A stretch of DNA of 64,000 nt from a virus (IMGVR_UViG_3300033463_006479:32001-96000), one strand, 5' to 3'; positions 2,519 to 58,516 are shown, numbered from the stretch's first letter. Numbers and translations are program-made. Notes: generated by a model not told the origin, from the sequence alone.

Positions 2519-4039
2519 TTATGCGAGGCTGTCATACCAATATGGTGCTTTTCCGTCAAGCGGTGAGTTGGTGAACATAAACCCGCTCGGTCTCAAACTC
2601 TTCGTGTTCCATCTGGAAAGGTCGCCATTGAATTTTGAATATGCGAACATACAGTCCATATTGACTACATTGGAAACATCCCAGTCCGATATGCTTCCGT
2701 TGAACACAGAAGCTATGAACATACGCTCCATATTCGTAACACTGGAAACGTCCCAATACGATATGTCCCCGTTGAACTTGGAGTTGGCGAACATAAAGGA
2801 CATATCTTCAACATTGGAAACATTCCATTCTGAAATGTCCCCGTTGAAATTTGAATCGGAGAACATTTCTGCCATATATTTCACATTGCCGACATTCCAC
2901 TTTGAAATGTCGCCGTTGAAATTTGACTTTTTGAACATACCGTTCATATTGAAAACACTTGAAACATCCCATCTGGAAATGTCGCCTTGAAATGCCGATT
3001 CAACAAACATCTCTTTCATATTTTCAACTTTGCTGACATCCCATTTTGAAATGTCGCCATTGAAAACCGAATCCTCAAACATATTGTTCATTGCAATAAC
3101 TTTGCCGACATCCCATTTGGAAATGTCACCGTTAAATTTAGACCAGTTGAACATATACGCCATATCTGTTACATTGGAAACGTCCCAGTCCGAGATATTT
3201 TTGTTGAATGACGAATGGCAGAACATCGACCCCATATCCGTAACATTGGAAACATTCCATTTGGAAATATCTCCGTTGAAATATGAACGATAAAACATTC
3301 TATGCATATTTCTGACATTGCTGACATCCCATTCGGATATGTCGCCTTGGAATGTTGTGTTTCTGAACAATTCCACCATTTCGTAAATCATCGAAACATC
3401 AATGTCGTTGAGGTTGCAGAATATGCCTTCTTTCTGTATTCTTTTGTGTATTATGTCCTTCAGCTCTTCTTTCGTTTTCGGAAAATACTTATACTTTCCG
3501 TATTTCCCTTTGTAATCTGAAAGCGTTGTTTTGCTTATCGGCTTGATTATGAGCTTTTCATTCAAGCGTTTTGTGCGTTTCCACACAAATTTGCTGTTGC
3601 CGAGTGTGTAACCCCTTTTGAAAAAATCCAATGTCAGTGGTGTTTGAATTATGTTCGGCCTCATTATGCCACTGATGTGATAGTCTTTGTCAAATGTGGC
3701 GAAAAGATTGTCATTAAATATGCTTGCGTTCATATATTCGAATTTCTTTGAACTATTGTCATAATAAACAAGAAACCCGTCAAGAATAAGGTCTTTGTCG
3801 CCAACAAGTATAAGTTCAAGGCCGCTTAATGATTCGTAGTATTCATTGTATTCCACAACATCCTCATAGGATATGTATGTCAATATGCCAAAAGTGCCTT
3901 TCTGTTTGTTTATTATCACACCATCCCCGCTTTTCAGCATACGCTTCGGCGGATTGCCCAACGTGGAAAGCCTTGTCTTTGTAACTGGCTTTATATCCAA
4001 TTTTTCGTCTATGTATTTGTTTGAATCAAGTATTCTCAT
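2519..4039 (-). CDS. Two-module protein: tag + unknown domain X + internal tag + DUF285 repeats
   Basis: LKSGDGV domain, then internal RLNEKLIIKPISKTTL, then DUF285 repeats. Confidence 0.9.
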   Translation of the reverse strand: MRILDSNKYIDEKLDIKPVTKTRLSTLGNPPKRMLKSGDGVIINKQKGTFGILTYISYEDVVEYNEYYESLSGLELILVGDKDLILDGFLVYYDNSSKKFEYMNASIFNDNLFATFDKDYHISGIMRPNIIQTPLTLDFFKRGYTLGNSKFVWKRTKRLNEKLIIKPISKTTLSDYKGKYGKYKYFPKTKEELKDIIHKRIQKEGIFCNLNDIDVSMIYEMVELFRNTTFQGDISEWDVSNVRNMHRMFYRSYFNGDISKWNVSNVTDMGSMFCHSSFNKNISDWDVSNVTDMAYMFNWSKFNGDISKWDVGKVIAMNNMFEDSVFNGDISKWDVSKVENMKEMFVESAFQGDISRWDVSSVFNMNGMFKKSNFNGDISKWNVGNVKYMAEMFSDSNFNGDISEWNVSNVEDMSFMFANSKFNGDISYWDVSSVTNMERMFIASVFNGSISDWDVSNVVNMDCMFAYSKFNGDLSRWNTKSLRPSGFMFTNSPLDGKAPYWYDSLA

Positions 4040-4053
4040 AATTCATTTATAGT

Positions 4054-4809
4054 TTAACATTTTATTCCACCAGCAATACCGCTTGGTGTTACTTCTGGCA
4101 AAATCAGATTAGGATTTCGCATACAAATAAGCCTGCCTCTGATTTTGTTCGGCGCACCTTTTATTGATATTAGGTCGTTATCGGAACAATCAAAATCCCC
4201 TCCCACTTCTTGTGGTGCTCCTTCAAGCGATGTCAGTTTGTTGTGGTAACATACAAAATCCCCATTGACAATTTTCGGTGCTCCTTCGAGTGTTGTCAGT
4301 TGGTTTTTGGCACAAATGAAATCCCCGCCAACTATTTGCGGTGCGCCTTCAAGGGAAGTGAGGTTGTTTTCATCACAAAAAAATCCTTTTCCGATTTTAC
4401 TTGTCGCACCTTTAAGCGTTGATAAGTTGCTGTGGCCGCAATAATAATTTCCCATAATGCTTTTTGGGGAATGTTCCAACGATTTAAGCATATTGCTATT
4501 GCAGTTGAAATCCCCTTCTATTTCTTCTGGAACACCATAAAGTGTGGTAAGCCCGATTTTATAACAAGTGAAATCGCCTTCAACACGACCGAACTTTATG
4601 ATTAGTTTCCCGTTATTTACAGCATCAGTGCCAAGAATGACATTATGCTTGCAGTCAAACCGTTTCGTGTTCTCATTCCAGATGAGGTCGTATTTTTCAA
4701 CAAGCTCCCTATTCACCTCAACGCACAAATCACCAAGCCTTGATTTTGAAATCGGCTGGATTGTGAGCTTTTCTGTTATGTATTCTTCTGTCCTTAATAT
4801 CTTTGCCAT
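4054..4809 (-). CDS. Tagged 22-aa leucine-rich-repeat protein
   Basis: FxCxxNxLTSLEGAPxxVGG repeats. Confidence 0.88.
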   Translation of the reverse strand: MAKILRTEEYITEKLTIQPISKSRLGDLCVEVNRELVEKYDLIWNENTKRFDCKHNVILGTDAVNNGKLIIKFGRVEGDFTCYKIGLTTLYGVPEEIEGDFNCNSNMLKSLEHSPKSIMGNYYCGHSNLSTLKGATSKIGKGFFCDENNLTSLEGAPQIVGGDFICAKNQLTTLEGAPKIVNGDFVCYHNKLTSLEGAPQEVGGDFDCSDNDLISIKGAPNKIRGRLICMRNPNLILPEVTPSGIAGGIKC

Positions 4810-4817
4810 ATCTTTTA

Positions 4818-5621
4818 TTAAATATTGAAATCATCAACGCCTTCAATTACATCGCTCAAATTTACTGATTCCATTTTTTCATTATTGTCAATATACCATC
4901 CGCATTTTCTTTTTAAAGAGCCGCCTTTCCACACCATTTTGATATATTGTACTGGATTTCCATATATGTCCTTACTTATGTCTTTGCCGTCTATGGCTTT
5001 TTCATAATTGTATATGCCGTAAAAATAATCAAAAAATCCTTGGTCTGCATATTTATTATAATTAGGCCGAACTATATCCTTTATGAAAAGGACTGTTAGG
5101 TTTTTTATATTGCTGGTGAATATATCTGACTTGCAATCAATAAGTTCACTCAAATTATAAAAAACATATTTCATACCAAGATAAGTTATTGATGTATCCC
5201 AGATTGCAGCAATCGGTGCTATTTCTACGGATTGGTTGCTGCTACAAACAGTAACATTATTTTTGGTAAGTACGCTTATTGCGGAATCATATATGTTTTT
5301 TGGTACTGTTTTTACCCATTCAGATTTATCATTTTTCAAACACCAAGAAGGCTTAAAAACCAAATCAAATTCATTTTTATTGTTACGGGCATAAGCAAGA
5401 GCATATTCATCATAGTTGAACGAAGGATATGCCCATTTCCGTTTACACCAAAGAGCATAGGCCAGAGTGTATATGGTTTCATCAGTAGTTTGAGGACAAT
5501 CAATGTAATTTTCCGCATTGAAAAAATCCTTATACTTTTTGAATCTGTGCAAACGACCTTTATTAACTGGCTTAATTGTAAGTTTTTCAGCAATATAATC
5601 TTCTGTTCTTAATATGTTCAT
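4818..5621 (-). CDS. Tagged protein with unknown domain Y
   Basis: MNILRTEDYIAEKLTIKP; CPxTxxETIYTLAYAL motif shared with two neighbours. Confidence 0.8.
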   Translation of the reverse strand: MNILRTEDYIAEKLTIKPVNKGRLHRFKKYKDFFNAENYIDCPQTTDETIYTLAYALWCKRKWAYPSFNYDEYALAYARNNKNEFDLVFKPSWCLKNDKSEWVKTVPKNIYDSAISVLTKNNVTVCSSNQSVEIAPIAAIWDTSITYLGMKYVFYNLSELIDCKSDIFTSNIKNLTVLFIKDIVRPNYNKYADQGFFDYFYGIYNYEKAIDGKDISKDIYGNPVQYIKMVWKGGSLKRKCGWYIDNNEKMESVNLSDVIEGVDDFNI

Positions 5622-5641
5622 AATACTTAAATTGTTGTTTT

Positions 5642-7351
5642 TCAAATGATTAAGTTGTCAAGTCCATCAACAAAATCAGAGAATTTCACTGGTGTCAATT
5701 TGCCGTCAATCTCCATAAGCAATCCGCTGTCCCTATTCCATATAACTTCCAGATATTTCACATCGTTTCCGTATATGTCCTTGGTCAAATCTTTGGCCAT
5801 TTCACCTTCAAAATATTCCTTGTCCGCATATTTCTGGTATTGCGGACGGACGATACTTTTCAAAAAACGAGCGACAAAATACGACTTGGTATATTTTATG
5901 TAACCGTCATACATACTGAAATCGTCAATTTCATATAAGCTGTGAATAACGTCATTATGCTCATCGTGTATGATACACAGTCCGATTTTGGGGGCAATTT
6001 CCATAAGCCCGCTTGCGGCTTGGCAAACCGCCTCCCCGTTTCTGTAAAGTATGTCAATGGCGGAATCATATATACTCTGGCTTGTTATTTTTTTCGACCA
6101 TTTGCATTTTTCAAGTTTTTCACGTTGAAGCTGCAATCTTATCTCTTCAAATTTCACTCTGATGCCTTTCGGACTGTTTGAGTCATACATTAAATAATAA
6201 TCGTACTTATCAAATTTTGGATTTATCCAAAGGTGTGTGGCAAACAGAGCATTTGCCAAAGCGTATGTCGTTTCATCAAAGGTTTTCGGGCATTCAATGA
6301 AATTGTCCGAATCATAGATGTTGTCATACTTTTTTATTCCGTGCAGGCGTTCCCTGCTGACTGGCCGTATGTTGAGTTTTTCATTCACACTTTCTGAAAC
6401 CTTGTCGGCTGGAACATATTTCTTGTTGTACCTGCTCCATATTGTGGCGGTATCCATATTTTCAACCCACTCTCTGTCATCAAGGCGGTTTATGTAATTC
6501 CTTGTGAGTTCCGATTTCTGGTTCACATCCTTCAATATGTAGTTTACCGTAATGTATTTGCTTGAAAGGTTGTTGTCAAGGTCGGCCACCGAAATTGATA
6601 TGCAACTTGCACCACTATCAATATCTCCTTTTTTGAACAATATGCCTTCCTCCGATGCTTTCATTGTTATCATATATCCATAAGAAAGAAGCAGTTTTTC
6701 GTATTTTTTCAAATCGTCCTTTCCTATGAATACCATTGTGAAACCTTCGTATGTGTTGGTATCAATCAGTCTGTCGCCTATAACAATGTCCCCAGTATGC
6801 AGTTTGTTTTTCGGAAGAATTGTGCGTTTGGCGTTGTCAAGCCTTGCTTTGGTGACTGGCCTTATGTCAAGTTTTTCTTCAACATTTTTTGGTCTTTCCC
6901 AAAGCATATAGCTCCCTTCTGGTGCGATGCCCCTTTTCAAGTATTCCATTGTAAGTGGCTTTGGCAAGTTTTTTCCACGCATTATGCCAAACGCTTCAAT
7001 CCTATTGTCGGATGGGAATTTCAGATTTTCGTCAAACAGACCAGCCTTCAGATATGCAAATGTGTTTTTATTTTTATCGAAACCGATAAAAACGCCATCA
7101 TCCAAACTGCCTTGCGCATCGTGGTAAATGTGGTGTATCCCTTTCCATTTGTAGCAGCCAAGTCGTTTGAACTCATCATATGATATATAGAAAAACGCAG
7201 CAAATCTTTGCTCTATGGTATGCATCATAACCAAATCTCCGTCTTTCAACAGTTTCTTCGGTGACTTTGAAAGATTGTGCAGCATTGTTTTTGAAACTGG
7301 CCTTATGTCAAGTTTCTCGTTCATATAGTCGGTGGTTTTCAATATTCTCAT
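5642..7351 (-). CDS. Three-module protein: tag-X, tag-X, tag-Y
   Basis: Three tag copies (MNEKLDIRPVSK, VEEKLDIRPVTK, VNEKLNIRPVSR) separate the domains. Confidence 0.85.
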   Translation of the reverse strand: MRILKTTDYMNEKLDIRPVSKTMLHNLSKSPKKLLKDGDLVMMHTIEQRFAAFFYISYDEFKRLGCYKWKGIHHIYHDAQGSLDDGVFIGFDKNKNTFAYLKAGLFDENLKFPSDNRIEAFGIMRGKNLPKPLTMEYLKRGIAPEGSYMLWERPKNVEEKLDIRPVTKARLDNAKRTILPKNKLHTGDIVIGDRLIDTNTYEGFTMVFIGKDDLKKYEKLLLSYGYMITMKASEEGILFKKGDIDSGASCISISVADLDNNLSSKYITVNYILKDVNQKSELTRNYINRLDDREWVENMDTATIWSRYNKKYVPADKVSESVNEKLNIRPVSRERLHGIKKYDNIYDSDNFIECPKTFDETTYALANALFATHLWINPKFDKYDYYLMYDSNSPKGIRVKFEEIRLQLQREKLEKCKWSKKITSQSIYDSAIDILYRNGEAVCQAASGLMEIAPKIGLCIIHDEHNDVIHSLYEIDDFSMYDGYIKYTKSYFVARFLKSIVRPQYQKYADKEYFEGEMAKDLTKDIYGNDVKYLEVIWNRDSGLLMEIDGKLTPVKFSDFVDGLDNLII

Positions 7352-8127
7352 AGCGGTTTCCAAATGTTTAAATTGAATTTGTCTTTCATAAAGTCGGAGA
7401 ATTTAAGACAGACTTTCGTTCCAATGCTGTCATTGGCGATATAATAAAGATGCCCGTCATCGTTCACGTCCCAATCCACTGCGAAATACAATATTTCATT
7501 TCCTTTCAAGTCGGTGTTTATATGGTATTTTTTGTTTGCGTAGTTCTGGTATTTTGGAAGAAGCAGGTCTTTTCTTATATATGCCGTGAAATGCTTTATT
7601 TTCTTTTTTATATATTCTTCAAGTTCTTTGATTTCAGAATCGTCAAACAGAAATACTTCAGTATGTGATTTTGCATCATCCCAACCTTTTTGTATCATTT
7701 CAAACCCAATCTTCGGTAAAATCTTGATGAGGTTTGTCTTTTTGTCAAGCCCCATTATTTCGCCGTGGTTTGACAGAACACCAAGTGCGGAGTCGTATGT
7801 GCTTTTGTCTGCTATGTCCTTCACCCAGTCATAAACTGTAACTGTGCTCATCAAATACTTTTCATAAAAAAGAAAGGGTATTGTGTTGGTGCTTGTATAT
7901 CGTATGCAGTATTTGTATTTCTCAAAATTCGGTTTTCTCCAGTATCTTTGCGCAAACAGCGTGTATGCCAGAGTGTATATGGTTTCCTCCATTGTGGTAG
8001 GGCACGTCTTGTAGTTGTCCGCATTGTAGAACTCCCTATACTTCCTTATGTCGGTAAGGCGTGCCCTTGTTATCGGCTTGATGTCCAGTTTCTCGTTTAT
8101 GTATCGGTTTGAATCAAGTATTCTCAT
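7348..8127 (-). CDS. Tagged protein with unknown domain Y
   Basis: MRILDSNRYINEKLDIKP; CPTTMEETIYTLAYTLF. Confidence 0.8.
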   Translation of the reverse strand: MRILDSNRYINEKLDIKPITRARLTDIRKYREFYNADNYKTCPTTMEETIYTLAYTLFAQRYWRKPNFEKYKYCIRYTSTNTIPFLFYEKYLMSTVTVYDWVKDIADKSTYDSALGVLSNHGEIMGLDKKTNLIKILPKIGFEMIQKGWDDAKSHTEVFLFDDSEIKELEEYIKKKIKHFTAYIRKDLLLPKYQNYANKKYHINTDLKGNEILYFAVDWDVNDDGHLYYIANDSIGTKVCLKFSDFMKDKFNLNIWKPL

Positions 8128-8146
8128 AAGCATAATTGTTCACCTA

Positions 8147-8158
8147 TATTTATAAATA
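8147..8158. promoter_or_regulatory. Overlapping bidirectional T4-type late promoter (TATTTATAAATA)
   Basis: TATAAATA on both strands between divergent genes. Confidence 0.7.
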
Positions 8159-8198: not shown

Positions 8199-10178
8199 AT
8201 GAAATTGCGTGAGATAGACATATCCGACAAACAGCAGGTGCTTGGTTTTTTTGTGTCAGAGCCAAACCCAGACAAGAACGGCAGAATGAAACGTGAGGAA
8301 ACATTCGCAAGGCTGTTTCCAGAACTTTATTCCGAGTTCAAGGTTTTTGTTTTTTCTGCTGACTTGGCCACCTCAACATTCGTTCAAAGGTTATGGCATT
8401 TCTTGCATAATGATAACGGAAATCTTGGCATTTGTCCAGTGTGCGGAAAACGCACGAAGTTTCAGTCGTTCACACTCGGATACCTTACATATTGCTCGTC
8501 AAAATGCGCCAATGCTTGTAATGACAAAAAAGATAAAGTTGCAAAATCGTGGATTGACAGATACGGGGGTGTGGGCTATGCTTCAGATAAAACGCAAGAA
8601 AAAATAAAGGCCACAATGCTTGAACGATATGGCGTTGAGTATTCGTCACAGAATGAAGCCATAAAACAGAAAATCATTGATTCGGAAACAAGAAATTTTG
8701 GCGGTGTCGGATTCGCATCCAAAAAGATTACAGACAAGTTCAAAGGCACTATGCTTGAACGATACGGAGTTGAATGGGCTTCGCAATCCGATGAGGTTAC
8801 GGAACGCAAGCGTATGAAAAAGATTTCTGGCAGCGACAATATTATAAGGATAACCGATGAGACGTTTGTTCTGAAATGCACAAATCCAGAATGTGAACTG
8901 TGCCAAGACAAACAATTTGAAATAAGCAGGAAAACATATCTGGCAAGGTTATCAAGAGGCAATGAACTGTGCACCATATTGAATCCGACAAAGACCATAG
9001 GCAAAGGGACAAGCGATTCCGAACAAAGTCTGTTCAAGTTCATCAAATCCATATATGGCGGAAAAATAATACAGAACGACAGAACCGCACTTGACGGAAT
9101 GGAGATTGACATATACCTGCCAGAGATAAATCTCGGTTTTGAGTTCAATGGGGATTACTGGCATCTGAATCCAAGAATATATGGTATGGATGATTGTGTG
9201 TTTGACCGAAACGCAAAGGATGTGTGGGAACGCATTATGCGAAAAGAATATGCGGCCAACAAGAAAGGCATAACTCTTGTTGAGGTGTGGGAAAATGACT
9301 GGTCTGGAAAATGCGATGAGGTGAAATCGCATATTTCAGATTTTGTGTCATATCCGACATTCAGTCCATCACCATATTATATATTGAAGGAGTTCCTTGA
9401 TTCTCTGCCAGCCAGATATGATGAATCGGAGTTCGGGCATTTTTCGTTCAAAGAGGCCGACATTATATATTCAAACGCATTTTACTTTAACAAAGGCACA
9501 GTACATTCGCACATAAAGTCGGAACAAGAAAAACGTACAATATATGTGTATGACTTTGAGATTAAGGACAATCGAAAATTTGATATTCTGAAAAGTCTCA
9601 TAGGGCACGCACTCGGACTGACGGAAAACAAGATATTTGCAAGAAAGTGCGAATTGAGGGAAATCACAAACACGGAATCCAGAAAGTTCCTTGATGAGAA
9701 CTCTTTGTTCGGGCATAGGGATGCCAATGTGGTGCTTGGCCTTTTTCATAATGGCGAGCTTGTTATGGTTTATAGTTTCGGCCACAACTATTATGGACGG
9801 AAAGACCATATAGAGATTATACGTGTCTGCACAAAGAAGAACACGGTTGTTGTTGGCGGTTCGTCAAAATGCTTGAAATACTTTATGGAGAAATATGGCG
9901 GTGATATCGGTTGCCGCAAAATCATATTCTATGTGGATAGAATACACAATGACGGAAAATCGCTAAAAGGATTCAAATTCTTGAAGCACGAATACGGTGT
10001 TATGAACTACTGGCTGGAAGATTATGTCGGGGATGGGTTTGTCGGTATGGCTGGCACTGCATTCAACAGAATGCCGTCAAAGCACGAAATTATCAAAAAA
10101 CTGACAAAACTCGGAAAAATCGTTCCGATTGAAACTCTTGGCGTTGATGTGTACGAATACGCAAAACCAACAGAGTAA
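8199..10178 (+). CDS. Putative homing endonuclease (Zn-finger, ERYGV repeats, Vsr/PD-(D/E)xK-like nuclease, Hef-like C-terminus)
   Basis: CPVCG, TMLERYGVE repeats, EIDIYLPEINLGFEFNGDYWH, FARKCELREI; lies next to the capsid gene. Confidence 0.7.
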   Translation: MKLREIDISDKQQVLGFFVSEPNPDKNGRMKREETFARLFPELYSEFKVFVFSADLATSTFVQRLWHFLHNDNGNLGICPVCGKRTKFQSFTLGYLTYCSSKCANACNDKKDKVAKSWIDRYGGVGYASDKTQEKIKATMLERYGVEYSSQNEAIKQKIIDSETRNFGGVGFASKKITDKFKGTMLERYGVEWASQSDEVTERKRMKKISGSDNIIRITDETFVLKCTNPECELCQDKQFEISRKTYLARLSRGNELCTILNPTKTIGKGTSDSEQSLFKFIKSIYGGKIIQNDRTALDGMEIDIYLPEINLGFEFNGDYWHLNPRIYGMDDCVFDRNAKDVWERIMRKEYAANKKGITLVEVWENDWSGKCDEVKSHISDFVSYPTFSPSPYYILKEFLDSLPARYDESEFGHFSFKEADIIYSNAFYFNKGTVHSHIKSEQEKRTIYVYDFEIKDNRKFDILKSLIGHALGLTENKIFARKCELREITNTESRKFLDENSLFGHRDANVVLGLFHNGELVMVYSFGHNYYGRKDHIEIIRVCTKKNTVVVGGSSKCLKYFMEKYGGDIGCRKIIFYVDRIHNDGKSLKGFKFLKHEYGVMNYWLEDYVGDGFVGMAGTAFNRMPSKHEIIKKLTKLGKIVPIETLGVDVYEYAKPTE

Positions 10179-10366: not shown

Positions 10367-12169
10367 ATGTATTACAATTCTATTAATGAATCACAAGTTC
10401 TCAACACTTGGGGACAGCACATTAAGGAGAGTTTGGGCATTAACGATGAAAGCAAGTTGGCTTGGATGTCAAAATATGCTTATATGCACGATTTGCACGA
10501 CAAACAAATGTTGAACGAATCCGTGGACGGACACGCTCACCTCAACCCTAATATGACAATCGGCGGAATGGGTCAAATCACATTCCCAGGCGCAACAACC
10601 AACAACACTTACGACCGCTCTTTGGCTGGTTCTGGTGACAATGTTTACAGCGTGCTTCCTTTGGCACTGCAAGTAGCAGCACAGACCATCGCCCTTGACC
10701 TCGTTCCCGTTGTTCCTATGCAGGGACCTCACGGCCTTTTGCAGTACCTCGACTATGTTTACGAAGGTGGCCGTCTGCACAACCAAGGTGGCAGCAAGTA
10801 CACTTCCGAAATCAAGAGCGATGTAATGGGTAACTTCGCATCTCCTTATATGATTAAGGCTATGCTCTTTGACGTTACCGAAGGCGAAGGCAGCGATGCT
10901 CCAAAGCATATGTTTGCTCCTAACGCAAAATACGCCATCAAAGGTCTTGAAGACGATTACGATTTGACTTTCATCTATCCTAACCGTATTGATGGTAAAC
11001 CTTTGTTCCGTGTGATTGAAAAATCCCACTACAATGGCGGACAGAAAATGGTTGGCGGTGAAAACGCTGGTGTTCCTATCTACGTTATCTTCGAAAACCT
11101 CAAAACCACTGAAAACCCAAACGGCAAATACGAACTCGTAGCCCTCGGAACTGGTTCTGACAGCAAAACTCTTACTATCCGCAAATCTGAAGGTTTGCAG
11201 GAAGTTCGTGCTTTTGAAGACCACATCACCTCTTTCAGCGGCGAAGGTTTCTTGAAAGACACCGTTACCTCAAACAATCCTTATACAAGGGAAATGGGCG
11301 AGGCTACTCCTGGCCGTAAGATTGGTTTGAAATCTTACACTCTGGATGTTAAAGCCACCACTTTCCAAGTTGACAGCGCAATCACCCGTGAACAAGTCCA
11401 AGACTTGAAACAGTTTGGTATTGACGCAGTTGCTCAAGCTGAAGCCGCATTGGTTAATGAACTTACCCAATGTATCAACAAGGTCATCCTTGAAAAGATG
11501 TTCAACCTTGGTGCTTTGAACGCTAAACAACTTGAGGAAGTTGAAGGCCGCAACCAAGTTTCCGCTTGGTTCACCAACGGAACTGGTTCTACCCCGACTA
11601 CCAAAATCTGGTTGGGCGACCAAATCAACAAAGAAGGCGAACTGGAAGACAAATATTTCACCGAAGTTCCTTTCACTAACGTGACTGGTGGTGGTGAAGT
11701 TATGGGTACTATCCAAAGACGTGTGATGACCAAAATCATCGCTGCTTCCAACATCATCGCTGTTCGTGGCCGTAGGGGTGCTGGTACTTTCGCTGTCGTA
11801 AGCGGAACTATCGGAACTGCTCTCCAAGACTGCGCTGGTTTCGTTCCTTATCCGTTGAGCAACACAATCTCCGCTAACGGTAACAGCCTTTATCCTATCG
11901 GTGCTCTCGCTGGTATCAGCATTTATGTTGACCCGAATATGGCATTCAACGACACACGTGTTTGCGTTGGTCGTAAGGGTAAAGAGAACGAACCTGGTAT
12001 CGTGTTTATGCCTTATTTGATGGCTGACAAAGTGGAAACCACTTCAGAGTTCACGATGGCTCCTGTCATCAGTCTGAAGAGCCGCTTCGCAGTTGTTGAA
12101 GCAGGTATCTACCCGCAGACCCAGTATTATACCTTCGGTATTAAACTGGAAGGCGTTAGCCTTGTGTAA
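10367..12169 (+). CDS. gp23: Major capsid protein, T4 gp23-like
   Basis: LPLALQVAAQTIALDLVPVVPMQGP, REQVQDLK, YVDP..VGRKG..PGIVFMPY, LKSRFAVV; strong codon bias; late promoter and terminator. Confidence 0.92.
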   Translation: MYYNSINESQVLNTWGQHIKESLGINDESKLAWMSKYAYMHDLHDKQMLNESVDGHAHLNPNMTIGGMGQITFPGATTNNTYDRSLAGSGDNVYSVLPLALQVAAQTIALDLVPVVPMQGPHGLLQYLDYVYEGGRLHNQGGSKYTSEIKSDVMGNFASPYMIKAMLFDVTEGEGSDAPKHMFAPNAKYAIKGLEDDYDLTFIYPNRIDGKPLFRVIEKSHYNGGQKMVGGENAGVPIYVIFENLKTTENPNGKYELVALGTGSDSKTLTIRKSEGLQEVRAFEDHITSFSGEGFLKDTVTSNNPYTREMGEATPGRKIGLKSYTLDVKATTFQVDSAITREQVQDLKQFGIDAVAQAEAALVNELTQCINKVILEKMFNLGALNAKQLEEVEGRNQVSAWFTNGTGSTPTTKIWLGDQINKEGELEDKYFTEVPFTNVTGGGEVMGTIQRRVMTKIIAASNIIAVRGRRGAGTFAVVSGTIGTALQDCAGFVPYPLSNTISANGNSLYPIGALAGISIYVDPNMAFNDTRVCVGRKGKENEPGIVFMPYLMADKVETTSEFTMAPVISLKSRFAVVEAGIYPQTQYYTFGIKLEGVSLV

Positions 12170-12809: not shown

Positions 12810-13280
12810 ATGAAAATACTAAAATCAGAAAACTATATTTTAGAGAAATTGAGCATACGACCAGTCACCAAGGATATGCTTGCTGGCGTGCCAAAATATA
12901 AAATGTTCAAAACGCCTTATGATATGAAACAGAATTTCAAAACTGGCGACATTGCGATTTTTTCATCTCATATGGGCAATGAATCTGCAATGTTTGTGTC
13001 GTATGATGATTATATGTCAGACAAGTATTCGTTTATTAGAGACGGTTTGCCGCAAAACAAACACGCATTCCCAAATGGCATATTCGTAACAAAGCACTAT
13101 GGTGTTTTGGCGTTGTATTGTTGTCTTTCTGACTGCGATGACAATCTCATTTGTAGCAATTATGAGATAACGAAAGTTTACAGAAGACATAATATGACAA
13201 AACCATTTAAAAAGAGCGATTTTTTAGACCATAATTATGACAATACAACTTTGATATACGAAACAGACTACGAAGAATAA
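12810..13280 (+). CDS. Tagged protein with domain X
   Basis: Tag + FKTGDIAIF...FVSYDDY. Confidence 0.8.
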   Translation: MKILKSENYILEKLSIRPVTKDMLAGVPKYKMFKTPYDMKQNFKTGDIAIFSSHMGNESAMFVSYDDYMSDKYSFIRDGLPQNKHAFPNGIFVTKHYGVLALYCCLSDCDDNLICSNYEITKVYRRHNMTKPFKKSDFLDHNYDNTTLIYETDYEE

Positions 13281-13831: not shown

Positions 13832-14516
13832 TAACTTGCTATGAAAATATACAAATCCGAAAATTATATAAGCGAAAAACTCGGCATTAAGCCAATATCA
13901 AAAACAAGACTTGGCAAAATTCTGTATGTTGATACGTATAAAAGCGCAGCCGATATGCGTAGCAATCTTCAAACTGGCGATATTGTTGTGATTGGAAATG
14001 AAGATGAAAACATACAAGGGACATACATATCATACAATGATATAAAAAGCGGCGTGTATGATAGTTACTTTCATTTCATAAAAAGAATTTCTGAACTGCC
14101 AAACAGCGAAATTGCTGAAGGCTTGTTTGTTTTTTGGGAGAAAGAGGGGTTTTATACAAAAATTTCAGTACAAGAATTTGATGCTGACCTTAAAAAATAT
14201 AATACATTCAGAATTATGTATGTTTATAGGTTGCCTCTGCTTTTACAAAAACCATTACCAGAAGAGTTCTTTAAAACCAACCATATTCCGAAAGCAAAAC
14301 TGATTTGGAGTTACAACGGAAAATCGGTTAATGAGAAACTTGACATACAGCCAGTTACGAGGGAACGTCTTGGCGACATAAAAGACGGAATGTATGTTAT
14401 AACTGGATGTGTTGTTGAGTGGGATAACAACAGAAGTTGATAAACCTATTCAAAAGTAGTCAAAAATGTTCAAAAGTAACCCGTATAAATATATAAAGTT
14501 CGTGATATTTATTATT

Positions 14517-14620
14517 AGAATGTTGGTGGCACGGCATTCTGAATCAATAGAGATATATTAGAGGTCTTAACCTTGTTGACTCGTGCCACATTAAGTCGCA
14601 AAGTTATCACCTCTTTTTTT
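14517..14620 (+). ncRNA. Predicted two-hairpin kissing-loop RNA leader upstream of tnpB
   Basis: Loop GTGGCACG (14526-33) is complementary to loop CGTGCCAC (14582-89); covaries with the copy at 38479-38585. Confidence 0.65.
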
Positions 14621-14628
14621 ATTGGAAT

Positions 14629-31323: not shown

Positions 31324-31374
31324 ATTTATTATTTTTAATGTTTGTCAATCTTCCTTTTGTTATTGGTTGGATTG

Positions 31375-48229: not shown

Positions 48230-48278
48230 AAATTGATGGTTTATGTGGTTTATATATGAGTTACTTATTTTTTCTGTA

Positions 48279-49448
48279 TCAAAAATATTGGTTGTTATTT
48301 GATTTTTTTCTGATAAGAATACGTTTATAAACACCTTTACCATTAATCATAAATTGCCCACCAGCAACACCATCTCCGCCGTTTCCGTTAAGGTCGTGCT
48401 CGTGTCCAATAATTTCAATTTGATTTGGATTATAATGCTCTAAAATTGTAATAGGAACACCCATTACTCCGTTGTAATCAATAGGAATAAAATCAAGTTT
48501 ATCCACATTTATTGCATCATAGTTATCATATTTGGGGTAGTCTACAAGATTATATTTTTTTTGTTCTTGCGGATAAAATAGTTCTTTTCGTTTGTTGTGT
48601 TCGACATTTGTGAACCAATTGCACAATCCTAATTTCTGATGCACGATACCATCTACCATATATTGACTTTTTTCATCAACAATTTTATTCAACGGAGTTA
48701 TGAAATCCGTTGGTGTCGTGTATCCAAGCCAAAGTTTGTTATCTTTTATATATTGAAAAATTTCTTTATACGTTATGGCGTTTTTGTTACCGATAATAAT
48801 GAATTTTTTTTCCAATTTTATAATTTGATTGACAAATTGGCGAAATAAACTAAATGGTGGGTTTGTGACGACAACATCACATTCTTTCATTATCTCAATA
48901 CACTCTTTACTCGAAAAAGAGCCGTCACCATTTAATTTGGTTACAACAAATTCACTCTCATCAACAAACATTGAATCATCGCATTCCCCGTTATATTCAA
49001 AAGCCAACCCGTTTATGCCAAGTTCTTTTTTTATACCATTACCATTTTTTATATATTGTGTGATTACAAGTTTTTTTATGCCCCATTCCTTAAAGTGGTA
49101 TGTGAAAAAATTAACAAATTCGCTTCTGCCTATATTTAAAACTTTGTCACAAGGCATATACACAATTTTTCCTTTGAAAAAATTTTTGTAATGATAAAGC
49201 TCTTTATCAATATCTTCAAATGTCGTATAGAACTCATCGTATTTGTTTTTTTTCGCCTCTCGCAAATTGCTGTTTTTTTGTTTTGACGGTTTTCCAAGAA
49301 ATTCTGAAAAATCAGCATTGAGCGAAACTTTTGTCGGTGCAATGATTTTATTTTCCAGATATGTTTTAGAAAAACCTTTTTTTAAGTGAATGACGTATTT
49401 TCCAAGTATTGGATTATATATTTCTTCAAAATGTTCAGATTTTTCCAT
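48279..49448 (-). CDS. Adenine-specific DNA methyltransferase, EcoRI family
   Basis: KYDEFYT, GDGSFSS.EC, VVTNPPFSLFR, GVMGVPIT. Confidence 0.88.
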   Translation of the reverse strand: MEKSEHFEEIYNPILGKYVIHLKKGFSKTYLENKIIAPTKVSLNADFSEFLGKPSKQKNSNLREAKKNKYDEFYTTFEDIDKELYHYKNFFKGKIVYMPCDKVLNIGRSEFVNFFTYHFKEWGIKKLVITQYIKNGNGIKKELGINGLAFEYNGECDDSMFVDESEFVVTKLNGDGSFSSKECIEIMKECDVVVTNPPFSLFRQFVNQIIKLEKKFIIIGNKNAITYKEIFQYIKDNKLWLGYTTPTDFITPLNKIVDEKSQYMVDGIVHQKLGLCNWFTNVEHNKRKELFYPQEQKKYNLVDYPKYDNYDAINVDKLDFIPIDYNGVMGVPITILEHYNPNQIEIIGHEHDLNGNGGDGVAGGQFMINGKGVYKRILIRKKSNNNQYF

Positions 49449-49480
49449 AAGTTTAGAATTATATTTAGCGAATTTATAAA

Positions 49481-49516
49481 GTCACAGATGACCTAAATTA
49501 TTAAGTCATCTGTGAC
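49481..49516. terminator. Intergenic hairpin
   Basis: GTCACAGATGAC...GTCATCTGTGAC 12-bp inverted repeat. Confidence 0.55.
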
Positions 49517-49528
49517 ATAACCTATTTA

Positions 49529-51064
49529 TTATTTACTCTTTTTAATGAGTGGTACATATTTTTCTGGAGTTCCTTTTTTGACACATTCGATTAGGCGTTT
49601 TTTCGCATCCTTAATGTCAGATTCTGTGAACTTGTTTCCGTGCAAAAGTTTCTCGTGATTTTCTTTTGTTGTAATCAAAAGATTTTCGGGTGCTGTTTTT
49701 CCACCCAACGACCACATTACAATATGATGACAACAAAAATCTCTTGGGCTATCGTGTTTCTTACCGTCAACGGGGTCAATGCCGCCAAATTCCTTAAATA
49801 AAGCATCTTTTTGGCTGATTGTGAAGTTCCGTATGCTTAACATTTTTTCATCATCTTTTCTCTCTCCACGCAATACATATTCAACAATTCGTGATAATGC
49901 GACAACATCGGGGTCTTGCATAAGTCTATCAACACTTTTGTTGATTTCCTTTTTTTCTTTAATTGTTAATTGTTTACGGCCATATAAAGCGTAAATCCTT
50001 CCCCAATCAGTGAGTCTCGTTATTTTTGAATTTATTGTACTTTCGTCAAAAATAGAACGCACCCAATCAATCACTGTTGTGTATGACTTAACCAAATGTT
50101 CGGCATCTGGATAATTATGAAATTCTTCCATATATGCTAAAATTCGTTTAGCCTTTATTTTTGGTGTTTCTTTTAAATATGTTTCACCAACCAACTCACC
50201 TTCACCGTGTTCTATAAACCATTTGTTTTCACCACTTTCAACAGCCCATATCGCACTTGCCCAATCCAATGCCGTTTCCAAAACAAGTTGTCTTTCAGCA
50301 GCCCTATTATACATAAATGTGTCATAATAGTATCGTCCGTCTTTGTCTTTCTTGTTAAACACAAAACCGTTAATTTTATTTGGTTTTGATGTTTTTGAAT
50401 TTTTTGAAAAATGCCGTTTTGCATCCTCACACCATTCTCCAGTGAATGCGCAGTTTCTTAACTCTTGGTCGTTAAGCAATGACGTATCTTGGTTAATAAT
50501 GGTAAACCAGTTCATCAAATCTCGTTCATTGCCTTTACATTTGTTAATTGTTGGCTTGTATTTTAAAAATTTTTCTTGGACTTCTTTTGGCAATTGTCTA
50601 AACAACACAAGGTTTCCACTTGGGTTATTAAGCCAATTTTCATATTTGAATTTAATCTTTCCTTCAAGAAAGTTAAACAATGTCAACAATCTTTGCTGTC
50701 CGTCAACAACACAATAATCATTTGTTGCTGTATTGTGGCCAAAATACATATGTCCAATCGGATAGCCCAAACTCACACTTTCCAACAACTTTGATTGCCA
50801 TCTTTTGTTTTCTTTTACAACATAACCTCTTTGGAATTTCGGGCGAATAATAAGTTTTCCATCCAACGCAACCACACTACCGCCGTCATCATCGGATGTG
50901 TCGGAAAAACCTTTATATAATTGTTCCAATGTCGGTTCTTCTCCATCGATTTGAAACTTATCTACGGAAAAATCTTGTTGGAAACCCAATCCGTAAGTTT
51001 CAGTTTCAGTTTCAGTTAACACTTGGCTGTTTTTCTTGCTGTTTACATTTTTGCTGTTCTTCAT
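49529..51064 (-). CDS. DUF262 (ParB-like) + HNH nuclease, GmrSD-like
   Basis: RPKFQRGYV, VVDGQQRL, F..IN; C-terminal HHIVMWSLGGKTAPENL...ENH. Confidence 0.85.
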   Translation of the reverse strand: MKNSKNVNSKKNSQVLTETETETYGLGFQQDFSVDKFQIDGEEPTLEQLYKGFSDTSDDDGGSVVALDGKLIIRPKFQRGYVVKENKRWQSKLLESVSLGYPIGHMYFGHNTATNDYCVVDGQQRLLTLFNFLEGKIKFKYENWLNNPSGNLVLFRQLPKEVQEKFLKYKPTINKCKGNERDLMNWFTIINQDTSLLNDQELRNCAFTGEWCEDAKRHFSKNSKTSKPNKINGFVFNKKDKDGRYYYDTFMYNRAAERQLVLETALDWASAIWAVESGENKWFIEHGEGELVGETYLKETPKIKAKRILAYMEEFHNYPDAEHLVKSYTTVIDWVRSIFDESTINSKITRLTDWGRIYALYGRKQLTIKEKKEINKSVDRLMQDPDVVALSRIVEYVLRGERKDDEKMLSIRNFTISQKDALFKEFGGIDPVDGKKHDSPRDFCCHHIVMWSLGGKTAPENLLITTKENHEKLLHGNKFTESDIKDAKKRLIECVKKGTPEKYVPLIKKSK

Positions 51065-52093: not shown

Positions 52094-53788
52094 ATGGCAG
52101 GTTTTATTACCACAAGGAAAGACCCAAGGACATACGCAACAACTAACAGAGTGTCGAAGATGCTGCGAAAAATCAGCAACCTCGGTATGGACTTTGACGG
52201 AAAAGTGTTCAAAAATTCAAGGGCAATCGGTCTTTATGATGTTGACCCTACAACACCGAACACCCAAATATTCCAATATGAAGATTCTATATATGACATA
52301 TTCCAAGGGTTCTCGTACACAGACCCGTCAATGCACAAGAACGTGTCAATCTATGACCAGCGTTACGATGACAGAAAGCGCAACGAACTGCGCAGGCTCG
52401 CTATGCAGGACGAGATTGAGGACATTCTTGACATTTTGACAGACGAAACAATATGTTATAACAAGAATGGATTGTTCTGCGAATTGCTTTATGACAAAAC
52501 CCTATTGACCGATGAACTGAACACGGAGGTTGTTGATATATTCAACAGCATATATTCCTATTTCGGTTTCTGGGACCAAAATATGGCTTGGGGTTATTTC
52601 CGCAAATTCCTCATTGAAGGCTTCCTCGCATTTGAAATCATATATGACGGAGAGCCGACAAAACCAGAAACACAGAAGAATATCATAAACTTCAAGGAAC
52701 TTGACATCCTTTCGTTAATTCCAGCAGTTTCGCAGCAGACTGGAGAGAAAATCTGGATTCAATATCCGAATGACCCAGCCAAGCAGCGTGTGCTTTACGA
52801 CTCACAAATCATATATATAAGTTATGCGCAGTTTGACAGCGCAAGCCGTGTTTCCTATGTGGAACGTTTGTCAAGGAGTTTCAACCTTCTCCGTATTATG
52901 GAGAGCACGAGGATTATGTGGGCTGTAACAAATTCAAGTTACAAGACATTGTTCACCATACCAGTTGAAAGTTACAGAAACCGTGGTCAGCAGACACTTG
53001 CGCAGATGATGCACAACTACAAGGAGATTATTGATTTCAACGAGGAAAGCGGTGAACTGCACGTGAACGGAAGGCCGATGATGCCGTTCAGCAAGGAATA
53101 CTGGTTTCCAAGTGTAGGAGGAGAAAGCCCGCAGATACAGACCTTGGGCGGTGACGGACCAGACCTCTCCGACACCGAGGCACTCAACTACTTCAAGCAG
53201 AAACTCTGGCAGACCAGCAAGATTCCGTTCACCCGTTTTGACAACACGCAAGGCCGTGGAAGTTATGCGTTGAACACCGAATCTATGATGCGTGAGGAGG
53301 TGAAGTTCAACAACTTTGTAAACCGCCTGCGAAGCATATTCAAGGAAATACTCATAAAACCCGTATATATACAACTCTGTCTTAAACATAAGGAGTTCTC
53401 AACAGATGTTTCATTCAGAAACTCTCTTACGCTTGACTTTGTTTCTGATAACGTGTTTACTGAAATGCGTGAAACCGAGGTGTTGCAGAAGAAATCTGAA
53501 TTTATTTCCGCTATGATGCAGAACCTCGTTACACAAGACAGCGAGGGTAATGATGTTCCGTATTTTGACCTCGACTTCCTTGTTATGCGTTTCAGTGGTA
53601 TGACACAAGAGGACTTGGACACCAACAAAAAGTTCAAGGAAAGAAAGGAACTCCAAAAAGAAGGCTATAAGGATGAGGATATAGAGAAGATACTTGACGG
53701 TGCTGACAAAGCCGACTTCAAAGCGGAAAAGAAAGAGGAAAAGAAAGAGGACGAGGATGAAGAAGGCGGCGGAGGGTTCTCATTGTAA
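52094..53788 (+). CDS. gp20: Portal protein, T4 gp20-like
   Basis: SYVERL.RSFNLLRIME, EYWFP..GG..PQIQTLGG, YFKQKL..SKIPFTRF, REEVKF..FVNRLR. Confidence 0.92.
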   Translation: MAGFITTRKDPRTYATTNRVSKMLRKISNLGMDFDGKVFKNSRAIGLYDVDPTTPNTQIFQYEDSIYDIFQGFSYTDPSMHKNVSIYDQRYDDRKRNELRRLAMQDEIEDILDILTDETICYNKNGLFCELLYDKTLLTDELNTEVVDIFNSIYSYFGFWDQNMAWGYFRKFLIEGFLAFEIIYDGEPTKPETQKNIINFKELDILSLIPAVSQQTGEKIWIQYPNDPAKQRVLYDSQIIYISYAQFDSASRVSYVERLSRSFNLLRIMESTRIMWAVTNSSYKTLFTIPVESYRNRGQQTLAQMMHNYKEIIDFNEESGELHVNGRPMMPFSKEYWFPSVGGESPQIQTLGGDGPDLSDTEALNYFKQKLWQTSKIPFTRFDNTQGRGSYALNTESMMREEVKFNNFVNRLRSIFKEILIKPVYIQLCLKHKEFSTDVSFRNSLTLDFVSDNVFTEMRETEVLQKKSEFISAMMQNLVTQDSEGNDVPYFDLDFLVMRFSGMTQEDLDTNKKFKERKELQKEGYKDEDIEKILDGADKADFKAEKKEEKKEDEDEEGGGGFSL

Positions 53789-56455: not shown

Positions 56456-56457
56456 GT

Positions 56458-57486
56458 ATGCGTATTTACAGAACTGACATATTCAATGAGAAACTTTCCA
56501 TACAGCCAGTAACAAAAACAAGGCTTAATGATATGGGTGTTGCTTTTAGCAAAGACCCAAAAAAACTTTTGCAAGCTGGCGACAGTGTTGTGATTAAAGA
56601 CAGCGCATATCCAAAAGGGATAAATGGTATGTTTATGCTATATGTGCCAGATGAGGATATGCGCAAATACGAATATGCCAAAAAATTTAATTTGTCTGGG
56701 TATTACAAATATAGTGATGCCGAGCGTAATGAGGGTGCATTTATCGGCCATAGTCCAAGCGGTTTCATTTTTGCACTGTTGAACAACTTTGATTGTTTAT
56801 TGAATTGTTGGACACGCCCAAACGGTGAACTGAAAGTCATTGAAATACGTAGATATGACAATATACAGAAGCAGCCATTTGACGAATATATTGTGAAGCG
56901 TGGCGGTACTGTCTTTGATGGAACATACGAAACGATATGGAAATGCGATGACAAATTAAATGAGAAACTTTCCATACAGCCAGTAACAAAAACAAGGCTT
57001 AATGATATGCATCCGTACAATTATAGGCCGACAACAAAAGCCGAACTTATAAGAATAATGGACAAACGCATATTGGATGAAGGCTTGCATTGCAACCTCA
57101 ACGACATAAATGTTTCAGCAATAAAAGATATGTCTGGGCTGTTTATGACTGATTTCAACAGATTTGACGGCGACATATCTGAATGGAATGTTTCCAATGT
57201 CGTTGATATGAGCCGTATGTTTTATGATTCGGATTTCAATGGCGACATATCAAAGTGGAATGTCGGTAAAGTTGAGAATATGTATCAGATGTTCGCATAT
57301 TCAAAGTTTAATGGAAAAATATCAAACTGGGATTTGTCAAGTGTGAATGATATGTTCCAGATGTTCGCAAATTCATATTATTCAAGGGATTTGTCCTGCT
57401 GGGATATTTCACACGTTAGGGATACTGGAAATATGTTCAGCGGTTGTCCGCTTGAATCAAAAAAAGAAAAGCAACCTCAATATTAA
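56458..57486 (+). CDS. Two-module protein: tag-X, tag-DUF285
   Basis: Identical NEKLSIQPVTKTRLNDM occurs twice. Confidence 0.9.
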   Translation: MRIYRTDIFNEKLSIQPVTKTRLNDMGVAFSKDPKKLLQAGDSVVIKDSAYPKGINGMFMLYVPDEDMRKYEYAKKFNLSGYYKYSDAERNEGAFIGHSPSGFIFALLNNFDCLLNCWTRPNGELKVIEIRRYDNIQKQPFDEYIVKRGGTVFDGTYETIWKCDDKLNEKLSIQPVTKTRLNDMHPYNYRPTTKAELIRIMDKRILDEGLHCNLNDINVSAIKDMSGLFMTDFNRFDGDISEWNVSNVVDMSRMFYDSDFNGDISKWNVGKVENMYQMFAYSKFNGKISNWDLSSVNDMFQMFANSYYSRDLSCWDISHVRDTGNMFSGCPLESKKEKQPQY

Positions 57487-57490
57487 GATT

Positions 57491-58516
57491 ATGGAAATAA
57501 TGGATACCAAAAAATACAATGAGAAATTGGATATAAAGCCAATGTCAAGGACACAGCTTATGTCAAGAAGCTGGGATATTTTCGGGCAACTGAAAGACGG
57601 CGATGTTGTAATCGTGCATTGCGATACAATGAACGGTATAGAAGATGTGAGGTTTGTGTTTGTTTCCGAAGAAAGTATGAGGAAGTACGCATATGCGAAA
57701 ACCTACAATTTCACTTTATACACATCCAATTTATATAGCGATAGGCAGCACGGCACGCTTATAGCATATTACTCAAACAAGTTTTCATATACATTGTTCA
57801 GCAAGTTTAGAAGAAATGGGGAATATAAAGCGGATAGAAGTGGTTACAGATATATAATAAAGGAGATAAGAAGATACGACAAACCTCCGTATCAGCCGTT
57901 CTCTGATTTGTATTTCCAACAGATAGGCAATTATGGAAACTATACCATATTGTATAGCAATTCGATAACGACAAAAATCAGCGAGAAACTGAACATAAGA
58001 CCTATTTCAAAAAGTCAGCTCGGATTGTATAAGACGAAAACTGTTACAATAAACGGACAGATTTGGACAGCCGAAAACGCATCAACCACAAGAGCGAATG
58101 ACGGCACTCGTCTTGTTGAGGGTGTTGATTATTTCGTGCATAACGGTGAATACTTCTATACGGAAATGAGTGCACAAAAAATTATTCCTTATGGTTGGCG
58201 ATTGCCATATACAAATGATTGGTATCATTTGTTTTCATCTGTAAATGGTAATGTTTTATCACTTGTATCAAAAGAATATGGCGGAACTGATGACTATGGG
58301 TTTGGTATAAAATTTCTTGGGATATATGGAAAGAGCAGGATGATAGGAGAAAACCAATATGCAAATTTCATTATCGGTGATAAAAAAGAAACGGATGGCA
58401 GCACAAATACTATGAAGTTGCTTAACGGAGACCAATATAATGAAAACGGAACTATGTGGGAGGAAACGCTGCCTGGTGTGTATGGTGTATCGTTGAGATT
58501 TATAAAAAACACATAA
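57491..58516 (+). CDS. Two-module protein: tag-X, tag-FISUMP (Fibrobacter succinogenes major paralogous domain)
   Basis: Internal ISEKLNIRPISK; TVTINGQIWTAEN, PYGWRLP, GTDDYGF, SLRFIK. Confidence 0.8.
   Translation: MEIMDTKKYNEKLDIKPMSRTQLMSRSWDIFGQLKDGDVVIVHCDTMNGIEDVRFVFVSEESMRKYAYAKTYNFTLYTSNLYSDRQHGTLIAYYSNKFSYTLFSKFRRNGEYKADRSGYRYIIKEIRRYDKPPYQPFSDLYFQQIGNYGNYTILYSNSITTKISEKLNIRPISKSQLGLYKTKTVTINGQIWTAENASTTRANDGTRLVEGVDYFVHNGEYFYTEMSAQKIIPYGWRLPYTNDWYHLFSSVNGNVLSLVSKEYGGTDDYGFGIKFLGIYGKSRMIGENQYANFIIGDKKETDGSTNTMKLLNGDQYNENGTMWEETLPGVYGVSLRFIKNT

Follow-up and report, generated by a model that had tools for sequence, protein, structure and literature searches.

Introduction

In phage T4, the prohead protease gp21 cuts after L/I-X-E, and within the T4 capsid targeting sequence (CTS) residues 4 and 7 serve targeting and residues 8 and 10 (Ile and Glu) serve processing (PMC9026906). 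Published work on such systems has described CTS-bearing cargo that is cut a single time (T4) and multi-site shredding of scaffolds and propeptides (T4, phiKZ, and SPN3US) (PMC8442874, PMC9026906, PMC5694885, PMC10052503). Here we analyzed a window of 64,000 nucleotides (nt), bases 32001-96000 of the 192,463-bp IMG/VR virus record IMGVR_UViG_3300033463_006479 (G000; approximately 70% complete as estimated by CheckV), which comes from an uncultured giant T4-like rumen phage. In this window a 25-residue tag, M-x-I-L-x-S-x-x-Y-I-N-E-K-L-x-I-x-P-V-T-K-x-R-L, recurs in part inside five genes and starts most long open reading frames (ORFs) other than the capsid and portal genes. On balance, and with modest confidence, we favor the reading that the internal tags are joints of modular capsid-cargo polyproteins, which would be loaded whole and then cut by the head protease.

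Results

Internal tags recur in frame within five genes

The first half of the tag is a 12-residue leader, M-x-I-L-x-S-x-x-Y-I-N-E, and the second half is K-L-x-I-x-P-V-T-K-x-R-L; the predicted cut (↓) lies between them, with Glu at P1 and Lys at P1′. The motif [VILM]xEKLx[IV]xP occurred 42 times in the six frames of the window, compared with a mean of 0.035 in 200 codon-chunk shuffles. A hidden Markov model (HMM) of the tag detected 49 real copies, six of which were internal and lay in five genes; a regular-expression scan agreed on approximately 49 copies, and the HMM found no internal copies in the window beyond the six. A sequence-only reading of this DNA had claimed that the motif recurs inside ORFs at domain boundaries, and all five examples it cited proved to be real and in frame. 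X, DUF285, FISUMP, and Y denote module families described below, and the five predicted polyprotein genes are as follows:

2519-4039, minus strand: X-DUF285, 506 amino acids (aa); N-terminal full tag, X, joint RLNE↓KLIIKPISKTTL at residue 161, DUF285 repeat domain (Pfam PF03382, 3.9e-158); tag P3-P12′ at 3521-3565, minus strand, predicted cut 3557↓3556
5642-7351, minus strand: X-X-Y, 569 aa; joints NVEE↓KLDIRPVTKARL at residue 160 (6839-6883, minus strand, predicted cut 6875↓6874) and SVNE↓KLNIRPVSRERL at residue 325 (6344-6388, minus strand, predicted cut 6380↓6379)
13841-14440, plus strand: truncated, X followed by a stump; joint SVNE↓KLDIQPVTRERL at residue 166 (14327-14371, predicted cut 14335↓14336)
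56458-57486, plus strand: X-DUF285, 342 aa; joint KLNE↓KLSIQPVTKTRL at residue 170 (56956-57000, predicted cut 56964↓56965); DUF285 matches PF03382 at 6.3e-41
57491-58516, plus strand: X-FISUMP, 341 aa from the ATG at 57491 (a longer ORF, from 57347, overlaps the preceding gene); joint KISE↓KLNIRPISKSQL at residue 166 (57977-58021, predicted cut 57985↓57986); FISUMP matches PF09603 at 1.9e-9

Beyond the leader, each of the five genes carries one or two further cut motifs at joints, and relatives carry up to four. The gene at 13841-14440 had been read as X followed by an unknown module; its joint is genuine, but the supposed module is a 33-residue stump left by an insertion sequence (IS) element, and the intact orthologue P0008 (322 aa) has a second module of 157 residues in its place.

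Two other accounts of the internal copies were rejected. Across 86 tag copies the invariant Leu was written with five codons and the invariant Pro with four, and this synonymous variation indicates that selection acts on the peptide; together with the in-frame position of the internal copies within long ORFs, it ruled out a DNA- or RNA-level element in place of a peptide. Separate genes with starts of their own were ruled out because no internal copy was preceded by an in-frame start bearing the first half, except in a simple read-through fusion at genome position 13329, which is the sole internal copy with the entire first half including Met.

The joints retain the predicted cut motif and the second half

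The tags of G000 were pooled with those of G001, a relative with a complete 413-kb genome and a capsid protein 88% identical to that of G000. The pool held 124 N-terminal tags, together with 29 internal copies judged genuine and 12 short starts. P1 was Glu in 121 of the N-terminal tags and P4 was Tyr or Phe in 94, with I, V, L, F, or M at P3 in nearly all of them. Among the internal copies, Glu was retained at P1 in 27 of 29 and V, I, L, or M at P3 in 25 of 29; they were unconserved from P4 upstream, and their P1′-P12′ residues were as conserved as in N-terminal tags. Furthermore, a profile of X was searched against 1.84 billion representatives and retrieved only 169 proteins, indicating that the X family is rare. 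In a database set comprising the best 150 of these 169 (clustered at ≤50% identity) plus the window's own protein, 34 proteins held internal tags, and the 40 internal copies, a few of which are N-terminal tags behind miscalled starts, had Glu at P1 in every case (40/40) and V, I, L, or M at P3 in 38. Pooled over the window, G001, and the database, approximately 65 internal copies retained only [V/I/L]-x-Glu and the second half. In approximately 64 of them the first half was missing up to and including P4 whereas P3 and P1 were still present, in agreement with the earlier claim that internal copies are without the M-x-I-L part. By analogy with the T4 CTS, the joints appear to have kept the two processing positions and lost the targeting positions.

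The two halves, which had been proposed to be functionally separable, indeed occur apart. In the two genomes, seven genes have their initial Met at P1′ itself (M-L-x-I-x-P), five others have leaders of 4-6 residues without the targeting part, and three proteins with unrelated N termini hold the second half internally. Two homologous 160-aa proteins (genome 98421-98912, minus strand; G001 43060-43542, plus strand) start with MPPKDY and are leaderless; they hold the second half internally with no Glu before it, as ..NGG followed by KLEIKPITKTRL and ..SNT followed by KLRIQPVNKERL. Conversely, the first half occurs alone at the start of three proteins, at genome 115497 (plus strand), G001 192643 (minus strand), and G001 178758 (minus strand). 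These proteins read M-x-I-L..Q-F-I-A-E, very close to the ..EFIAE of T4, with G-A-G-A-G-Y or other sequence thereafter. The first of them begins M-R-I-L-R-S-S-Q-F-I-A-E↓G-A-G-A-G-Y, and the protein at G001 192643 has an internal QVNE↓KL joint later in the chain, followed by a second module. Window genes with short or variant starts are as follows:

43659-43997, minus strand: second-half-only gene, Met exactly at P1′ (M-L-D-I-K-P-I-T-N)
34550-35272, minus strand: DUF285 gene, 5-residue leader MENTN and then RLIIRPVSKERL, no first half and no Glu site
60060-60527, minus strand: gene with 4-residue leader MEHK and then KLDITPITAKRL, no first half and no Glu site
58521-58988, plus strand: stand-alone X with a shortened 6-residue leader, MERIHE↓KLGIKPITRERL, ending 3 residues past the last X strand
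31289-31749, minus strand: broken polyprotein, first module 31375-31749, second half TIQPITKGRLTNIKNNKL out of frame at 31375-31322

Four genes had been said to start directly at the second half. This holds for 43659; those at 34550 and 60060 have instead the short leaders listed above, and the one placed at 31378 was misread, for it begins with a variant first half (MTKILKSNEY..LDE↓GL) and is the first module of the broken polyprotein.

P1 was Glu at all 26 joints of leader-bearing proteins, compared with 2 of the 8 second-half copies in proteins that lack the first half (Fisher p = 2e-5, the copies being related paralogues and not independent events). Since Glu is present with the leader and mostly absent from leaderless copies, the Glu triad seems to travel with capsid targeting. 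The second half forms a unit of its own, in which conservation begins with the Leu at P2′.

A degenerate DNA pattern for E-K-L-x-I-x-P-V-T-K-x-R-L gave seven matches in 185,579 prokaryote genomes, all of them out of frame or stop-containing, although the pattern covers only the Val-Thr-Lys variant and absence from prokaryote genomes is to that extent incomplete. In IMG/VR the same pattern was found only in G001 and two other contigs. By these searches, this particular tag is restricted to a small number of contigs from rumen phages.

Modules occur both chained and alone

The tagged proteins of G000 and G001 were split at the tags and the pieces clustered, which yielded five main module families:

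X: 38 copies, approximately 140 aa (135-150 aa)
DUF285 repeats: 28 copies
Z, a second repeat family: 40 copies
FISUMP: 11 copies
Y: 5 copies

All five families occur in the two genomes both as stand-alone tagged proteins and in chains (X-DUF285, X-FISUMP, X-X-Y, X-X-X-Z, X-X-X-X, and Z-Z), and X-FISUMP was found twice in G001. It had been claimed that most modules also exist as stand-alone tagged genes, and the clustering confirmed this for X, DUF285, Y, and FISUMP. Stand-alone examples in the window are as follows:

28105-28605, plus strand: X with a full N-terminal tag
58521-58988 (listed above) and 12810-13280: X
4818-5621 and 7348-8133: Y
58993-59556: FISUMP

Alignment of the X modules showed that stand-alone X genes end 3-4 residues beyond a conserved terminal Trp, and fused X modules continue through a variable linker of 8-10 residues to the Glu; the internal tags therefore lie exactly at module boundaries. 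Separately, the gene at genome 29010-29627 (minus strand) encodes X, then a seemingly decayed joint (..SNPRISGNP..) and a single DUF285-like repeat, and may be a degenerating X-DUF285 fusion.

The joints are predicted to be exposed coil

Two separate AlphaFold models were built with paralogue alignments, one of X with both flanking tags and one of the joint plus DUF285 (gene 56458-57486). In the former, the X core had a predicted local distance difference test (pLDDT) score of 90-98, the N-terminal tag 60-66, and the linker and joint 70-74, with coil around N-E↓K-L-S-I-Q-P-V and a short helix from T-K-T-R-L. In the latter, pLDDT was 44-47 up to the cut, 64-72 in the second half, and 98 in the repeat domain, low values not being proof of disorder. 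The internal tags thus fell in low-confidence coil outside the flanking domains, and the joints are predicted to be exposed coil belonging to neither neighbor. Moreover, the same second-half peptide precedes at least eight unrelated module families, so that neither the models nor the variety of downstream partners points to a motif that is an integral part of the downstream fold.

The fold of X itself was elusive. Foldseek against PDB gave nothing at E ≤ 0.001, X had no named neighbor in the ESM Atlas, and Pfam returned only a sub-threshold DUF7663 match. The best Z score in a wide VIA-align search was 5.4 (3kw0), with many NlpC/P60-superfamily chains at Z 3-5, below the tool's stated background level. 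The X profile weakly matched a bacterial NlpC/P60 repeat protein (P0146, E 2.4e-4), and no conserved Cys or His was found in 37 aligned X modules.

Head genes and late-promoter-like octamers accompany the tagged genes, and a relative encodes a gp21-type protease

The window contains two T4-type head genes:

10367-12169, plus strand: T4 gp23-type major capsid protein (PF07068, 1.5e-30)
52094-53788, plus strand: T4 gp20-type portal (PF07230, 3.3e-64)

A propeptide cut in the capsid protein was predicted at the expected position, L-N-E51↓SVDGHAHLNP, and four relatives have LNE, MNE, or IAE there. A gp21-family protease was found in G001 at 290916-292871, minus strand (PF03420, 49.5-50.7 bits compared with a 27-bit cutoff). 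Its N terminus includes ..L-L-I-I-E-R, resembling the LIE-9 of T4 gp21, and the gp21-type domain heads a 647-residue protein with a C-terminal array of approximately 12 tandem 14-residue repeats (H-x-D-Y-L-A-E-K/Q-L-Q-K-x-x-x; 42-nt period). Outside the tags, [YF][LIVM]xE[KQ]L was almost confined to this protein, which resembles a protease fused to a scaffold in which the predicted cut motif of the protease recurs many times. Glu at P1, as expected of a consensus site for the phage's own protease, was present at 26 of 26 leader-bearing joints and at all 40 database joints. In G000, the best gp21-family match was sub-threshold (19.5 bits) and lay outside the window, in a 173-aa ORF at genome 104442-104963 (minus strand) that may be a diverged protease paralogue like that of SPN3US-type phages.

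The T4 late-promoter-like octamer TATAAATA occurred 22 times in the window compared with 4.4 expected, a five-fold excess. One copy, at 8147-8154 (minus strand), lies 14 nt upstream of the minus-strand tagged operon with 5642-7351 and 2519-4039, and others, at 10260, 52058, 12226, and 55431, precede the capsid gene, the portal gene, and the operons that begin at 12252 and 55445, respectively. Further sites include 17798 and 38224, and the octamer also occurs within IS left ends ahead of TnpB. Because head genes and tagged operons share the octamer, the tagged genes are probably late and expressed with the head genes.

Other genes were noted near these. Two DUF7487 proteins are encoded on the plus strand, at 8199-10178, directly upstream of the major capsid gene, and at 41372-42727. 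Among the head genes, a minus-strand cluster at 45899-51064 is related to restriction and anti-restriction; it contains an EcoRI-type adenine methyltransferase (48279-49448; PF13651, 1.2e-92) that adjoins a GmrSD N-terminal-domain protein (49529-51064) and an 814-aa ORF without a Pfam match.

Tags are sites of recombination, and tagged genes are truncated by insertion elements

In relatives, the modules of the window reappear in other arrangements, joined, separated, or recombined at the tags. Orthologues of 5642-7351 in other assemblies are 91-98% identical, and in the close ones both joints are unchanged and the first X diverges. The orthologue P0005 lacks the first X: it begins with the first 18 residues of the neighboring gene 7348-8133 and then continues with the window's internal second half from inside E-K-L-D-I, an arrangement that indicates deletion by recombination within the tag. 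No long homology was found between the two tags behind this deletion, which share only patchy identity in G000. Another orthologue, P0004 (610 aa, from another assembly), has a first stretch of approximately 95 residues that resembles the N terminus of a sugar nucleotidyltransferase (..LVVMAAGIGSRFG..) and is joined to the middle of the first X; this could be either a real recombinant or an assembly chimera.

In 56458-57486, tag DNA forms a 61-nt direct repeat on either side of X (56475-56535 and 56949-57009; 97% identical, 51 nt exact). The two copies are 474 nt apart and in frame, and X here looks like a recent cassette insertion by tag recombination. Homologues of 59567-60070 and 31375-31749 are fused in G001 and are separate genes in the window.

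All three IS200/605-type TnpB elements of the window (14441-16266, 30029-31320, and 38400-39893) truncate tagged genes from inside. The gene 13841-14440 breaks off at ...AGTTGAT, with the element following from approximately 14441 (TnpB 14629-16266). The gene 31375-31749 ends ..C-V-S-E-K-stop, where a 1-nt deletion at the K↓L codons shifts the downstream tag out of frame; its broken second module is followed by TTAC and then the second element (TnpB 30029-31255). The intact two-module orthologue P0095 (326 aa) continues K-L-T-I-Q-P-I-T-K-G-R-L and a second module. The third element follows ..TTTATTGA in a Z-type gene cut to 49 aa (38252-38401). Two of the three elements have the left-end sequence ..AACCCGTATAAATATAT.. 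in common, and the second element follows ..AAATTAC.

Discussion

The order of events that we propose is as follows. The first half would act as a T4-type CTS that carries the whole chain into the prohead scaffolding core, a role suggested by its similarity to the T4 sequence and to the scaffold repeat of this lineage. A gp21-type prohead protease would then recognize [V/I/L]-x-E↓K-L, both at the end of the leader and at each joint, and cut behind the Glu. One packaged precursor would yield two to four modules (X, DUF285, the second repeat family, FISUMP, Y, and others), each starting with K-L-x-I-x-P-V-T-K-x-R-L. This retained 12-residue peptide appears not to be needed by the protease and is also found on leaderless proteins, so it would most likely be a separate address or docking peptide. 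Comparison with relatives shows that the tags double as in-frame recombination points at which modules are inserted, removed, or swapped. Cleavage at the joints fits the T4-type head module, the motif matches in scaffold and capsid, the link between Glu and leader, and the fused and split forms. We suggest only tentatively, as a doubtful extension, that the second half is an independent address that acts after cleavage. It might bind a shared partner of phage or host origin, hold acidic cargo on the packaged DNA, or serve as an exit or ordering signal. The polyprotein design would then serve to give this address to each module set free from a single loaded chain, and the system would be a cargo code in two steps (load, cut, then re-address), with some proteins that are never packaged bearing the tag too.

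Several points weigh against cleavage at the joints. The internal proteins of T4, whose CTS is MKTYQEFIAE, are cut only once (PMC8442874), and multi-site cutting in T4, phiKZ, and SPN3US concerns discarded scaffolds and propeptides, not several mature proteins (PMC5694885, PMC9026906). No gp21 above the Pfam cutoff was found in the 70%-complete G000 record, and tblastn of the G001 protease against G000 gave no match. The caveats given above on pLDDT and on related paralogues count here too, and the 51-nt exact repeat marks a very recent recombination at the 56458 joint, making conservation at that joint uninformative. The 12 residues P1′-P12′ are as conserved as the cut motif but are missing from the protease's other predicted sites (scaffold repeats and capsid site), and its specificity leaves them unexplained. 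They would suit joints that stay uncut, the tags being flexible linkers and in-frame scars of cassette shuffling and the 15-mer [VIL]-x-E-K-L...R-L a single repeated binding or docking motif. The behavior of the tags as recombination points (the P0005 junction inside EKLDI and the 61-nt repeat around X) would suit this as well, as would tag codons skewed relative to gene bodies (GAG over GAA at P1), which hint at DNA-level constraint or conversion. Nevertheless, we regard uncut joints as unlikely. A scar would keep or lose the halves at random, whereas nearly every internal copy has lost the first half down to P4 and retained P3 and P1; Glu marks the leader-bearing joints and not most leaderless copies; the second half must be able to function without the triad, given the genes that start at P1′; and the triad has its match both in the scaffold repeat and at the propeptide site of the capsid protein.

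Cleavage could also occur with a different role for X, which might be a long carrier or propeptide that is later removed, or else a building unit of the prohead core. X would then help the module behind it to be loaded and would afterwards be broken down or stay as filler. X does stand upstream in most polyproteins (X-DUF285, X-FISUMP, X-X-Y, X-X-X-Z), its 135-150 aa match the long head-protein propeptides of SPN3US (124-127 residues; PMC5694885), it lacks a conserved catalytic residue and resembles no known fold clearly, it is mildly basic (median isoelectric point 8.3) where the payload repeat domains are acidic, and it acts as an insertable cassette between tag repeats. We consider this role quite improbable all the same, since X is also found as a stand-alone tagged protein, in last place in X-X-X and X-X-X-X, and downstream of DUF285 in P0010; its paralogues are only 15-35% identical to one another, more like diversifying cargo than a conserved structural part; and joints with the same motif follow at least ten non-X modules too. 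Surface or binding proteins are the usual carriers of DUF285/BspA-like repeats and FISUMP domains, and some proteins carry the second half without a leader. These observations would suit a tag that is no head-loading signal at all but a peptide anchoring repeat and FISUMP proteins to a common partner, outside the particle or in the cell, as adhesins or decoration. Such a location is very unlikely in our view: tagged proteins lack a signal peptide, and to our knowledge the known T4 decoration proteins have no such leader. The first half (..DFIAE, ..DYIAE, ..QYINE), moreover, resembles both the ..EFIAE of the T4 CTS (PMC8442874) and the scaffold DYLAE(K/Q)L, and DUF285 proteins occur inside the particles of the giant virus AaV (PMC7507832).

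If the joints are indeed cut, a single gene of a T4-type phage could supply a combinatorial set of proteins for loading and delivery, with one leader for several payloads, and new payload combinations could arise through in-frame recombination at the tags. The internal-protein paradigm would then grow from the three or four small proteins of T4 to a modular arsenal occupying approximately a quarter of a giant phage genome. The tag would also provide a simple sequence rule for spotting injected cargo in uncultured phages, and its joints would be natural self-separating links for packing several foreign proteins into T4-like capsids. A search of the prohead-protease literature for polyproteins found no paper using that word, and protease-jointed phage cargo polyproteins appear to be unpublished.

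The closest known counterparts are the T4 internal proteins IPI, IPII, IPIII, and Alt. As in T4, the phage has T4-type head genes, many unrelated, fast-evolving proteins bear a 12-residue leader ending in aromatic-Ile-x-Glu, and the same two positions would determine the predicted cut after Glu. However, the T4 proteins are single modules with one cut, whereas here one leader serves a chain of two to four modules with a cut motif at each joint; a conserved 12-residue peptide follows each predicted cut and would stay on the products; and the tag is on approximately a quarter of the genes, compared with a handful of such proteins in T4. Several prohead-protease sites within one head protein are also a feature of T4 gp22, gp67, and gp68 and of the phiKZ and SPN3US propeptides, to which the approximately 12 DYLAE repeats of G001 are similar. 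The extra cuts in those core proteins and propeptides shred scaffold or propeptide for exit from the head, whereas the pieces between predicted cuts here are folded domains that also exist as stand-alone genes, and cutting would thus set free several mature proteins.

Further afield, the precursors of picornaviruses, of African swine fever virus (pp220 and pp62), and of adenoviruses are cut by a protease that the virus itself encodes and give several products from one frame, with a short site at each boundary and processing tied to particle maturation. The design of one frame with a boundary consensus is shared, but the lineage and the protease family are unrelated (a gp21/assemblin-like serine protease here), and the modules would be accessory, interchangeable cargo and not essential proteins of structure or replication, each product keeping a common N-terminal peptide. 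Promoter early stem-loop (PeSL) cassettes and the hyperplastic loci for internal proteins in T4-type phages likewise have diverse genes flanked by a short conserved sequence, through which modules are shuffled in variable regions of these genomes. The shuffling element described here differs from PeSL in that it is coding and in frame, is conserved at the protein level with synonymous variation, and joins modules into single proteins.

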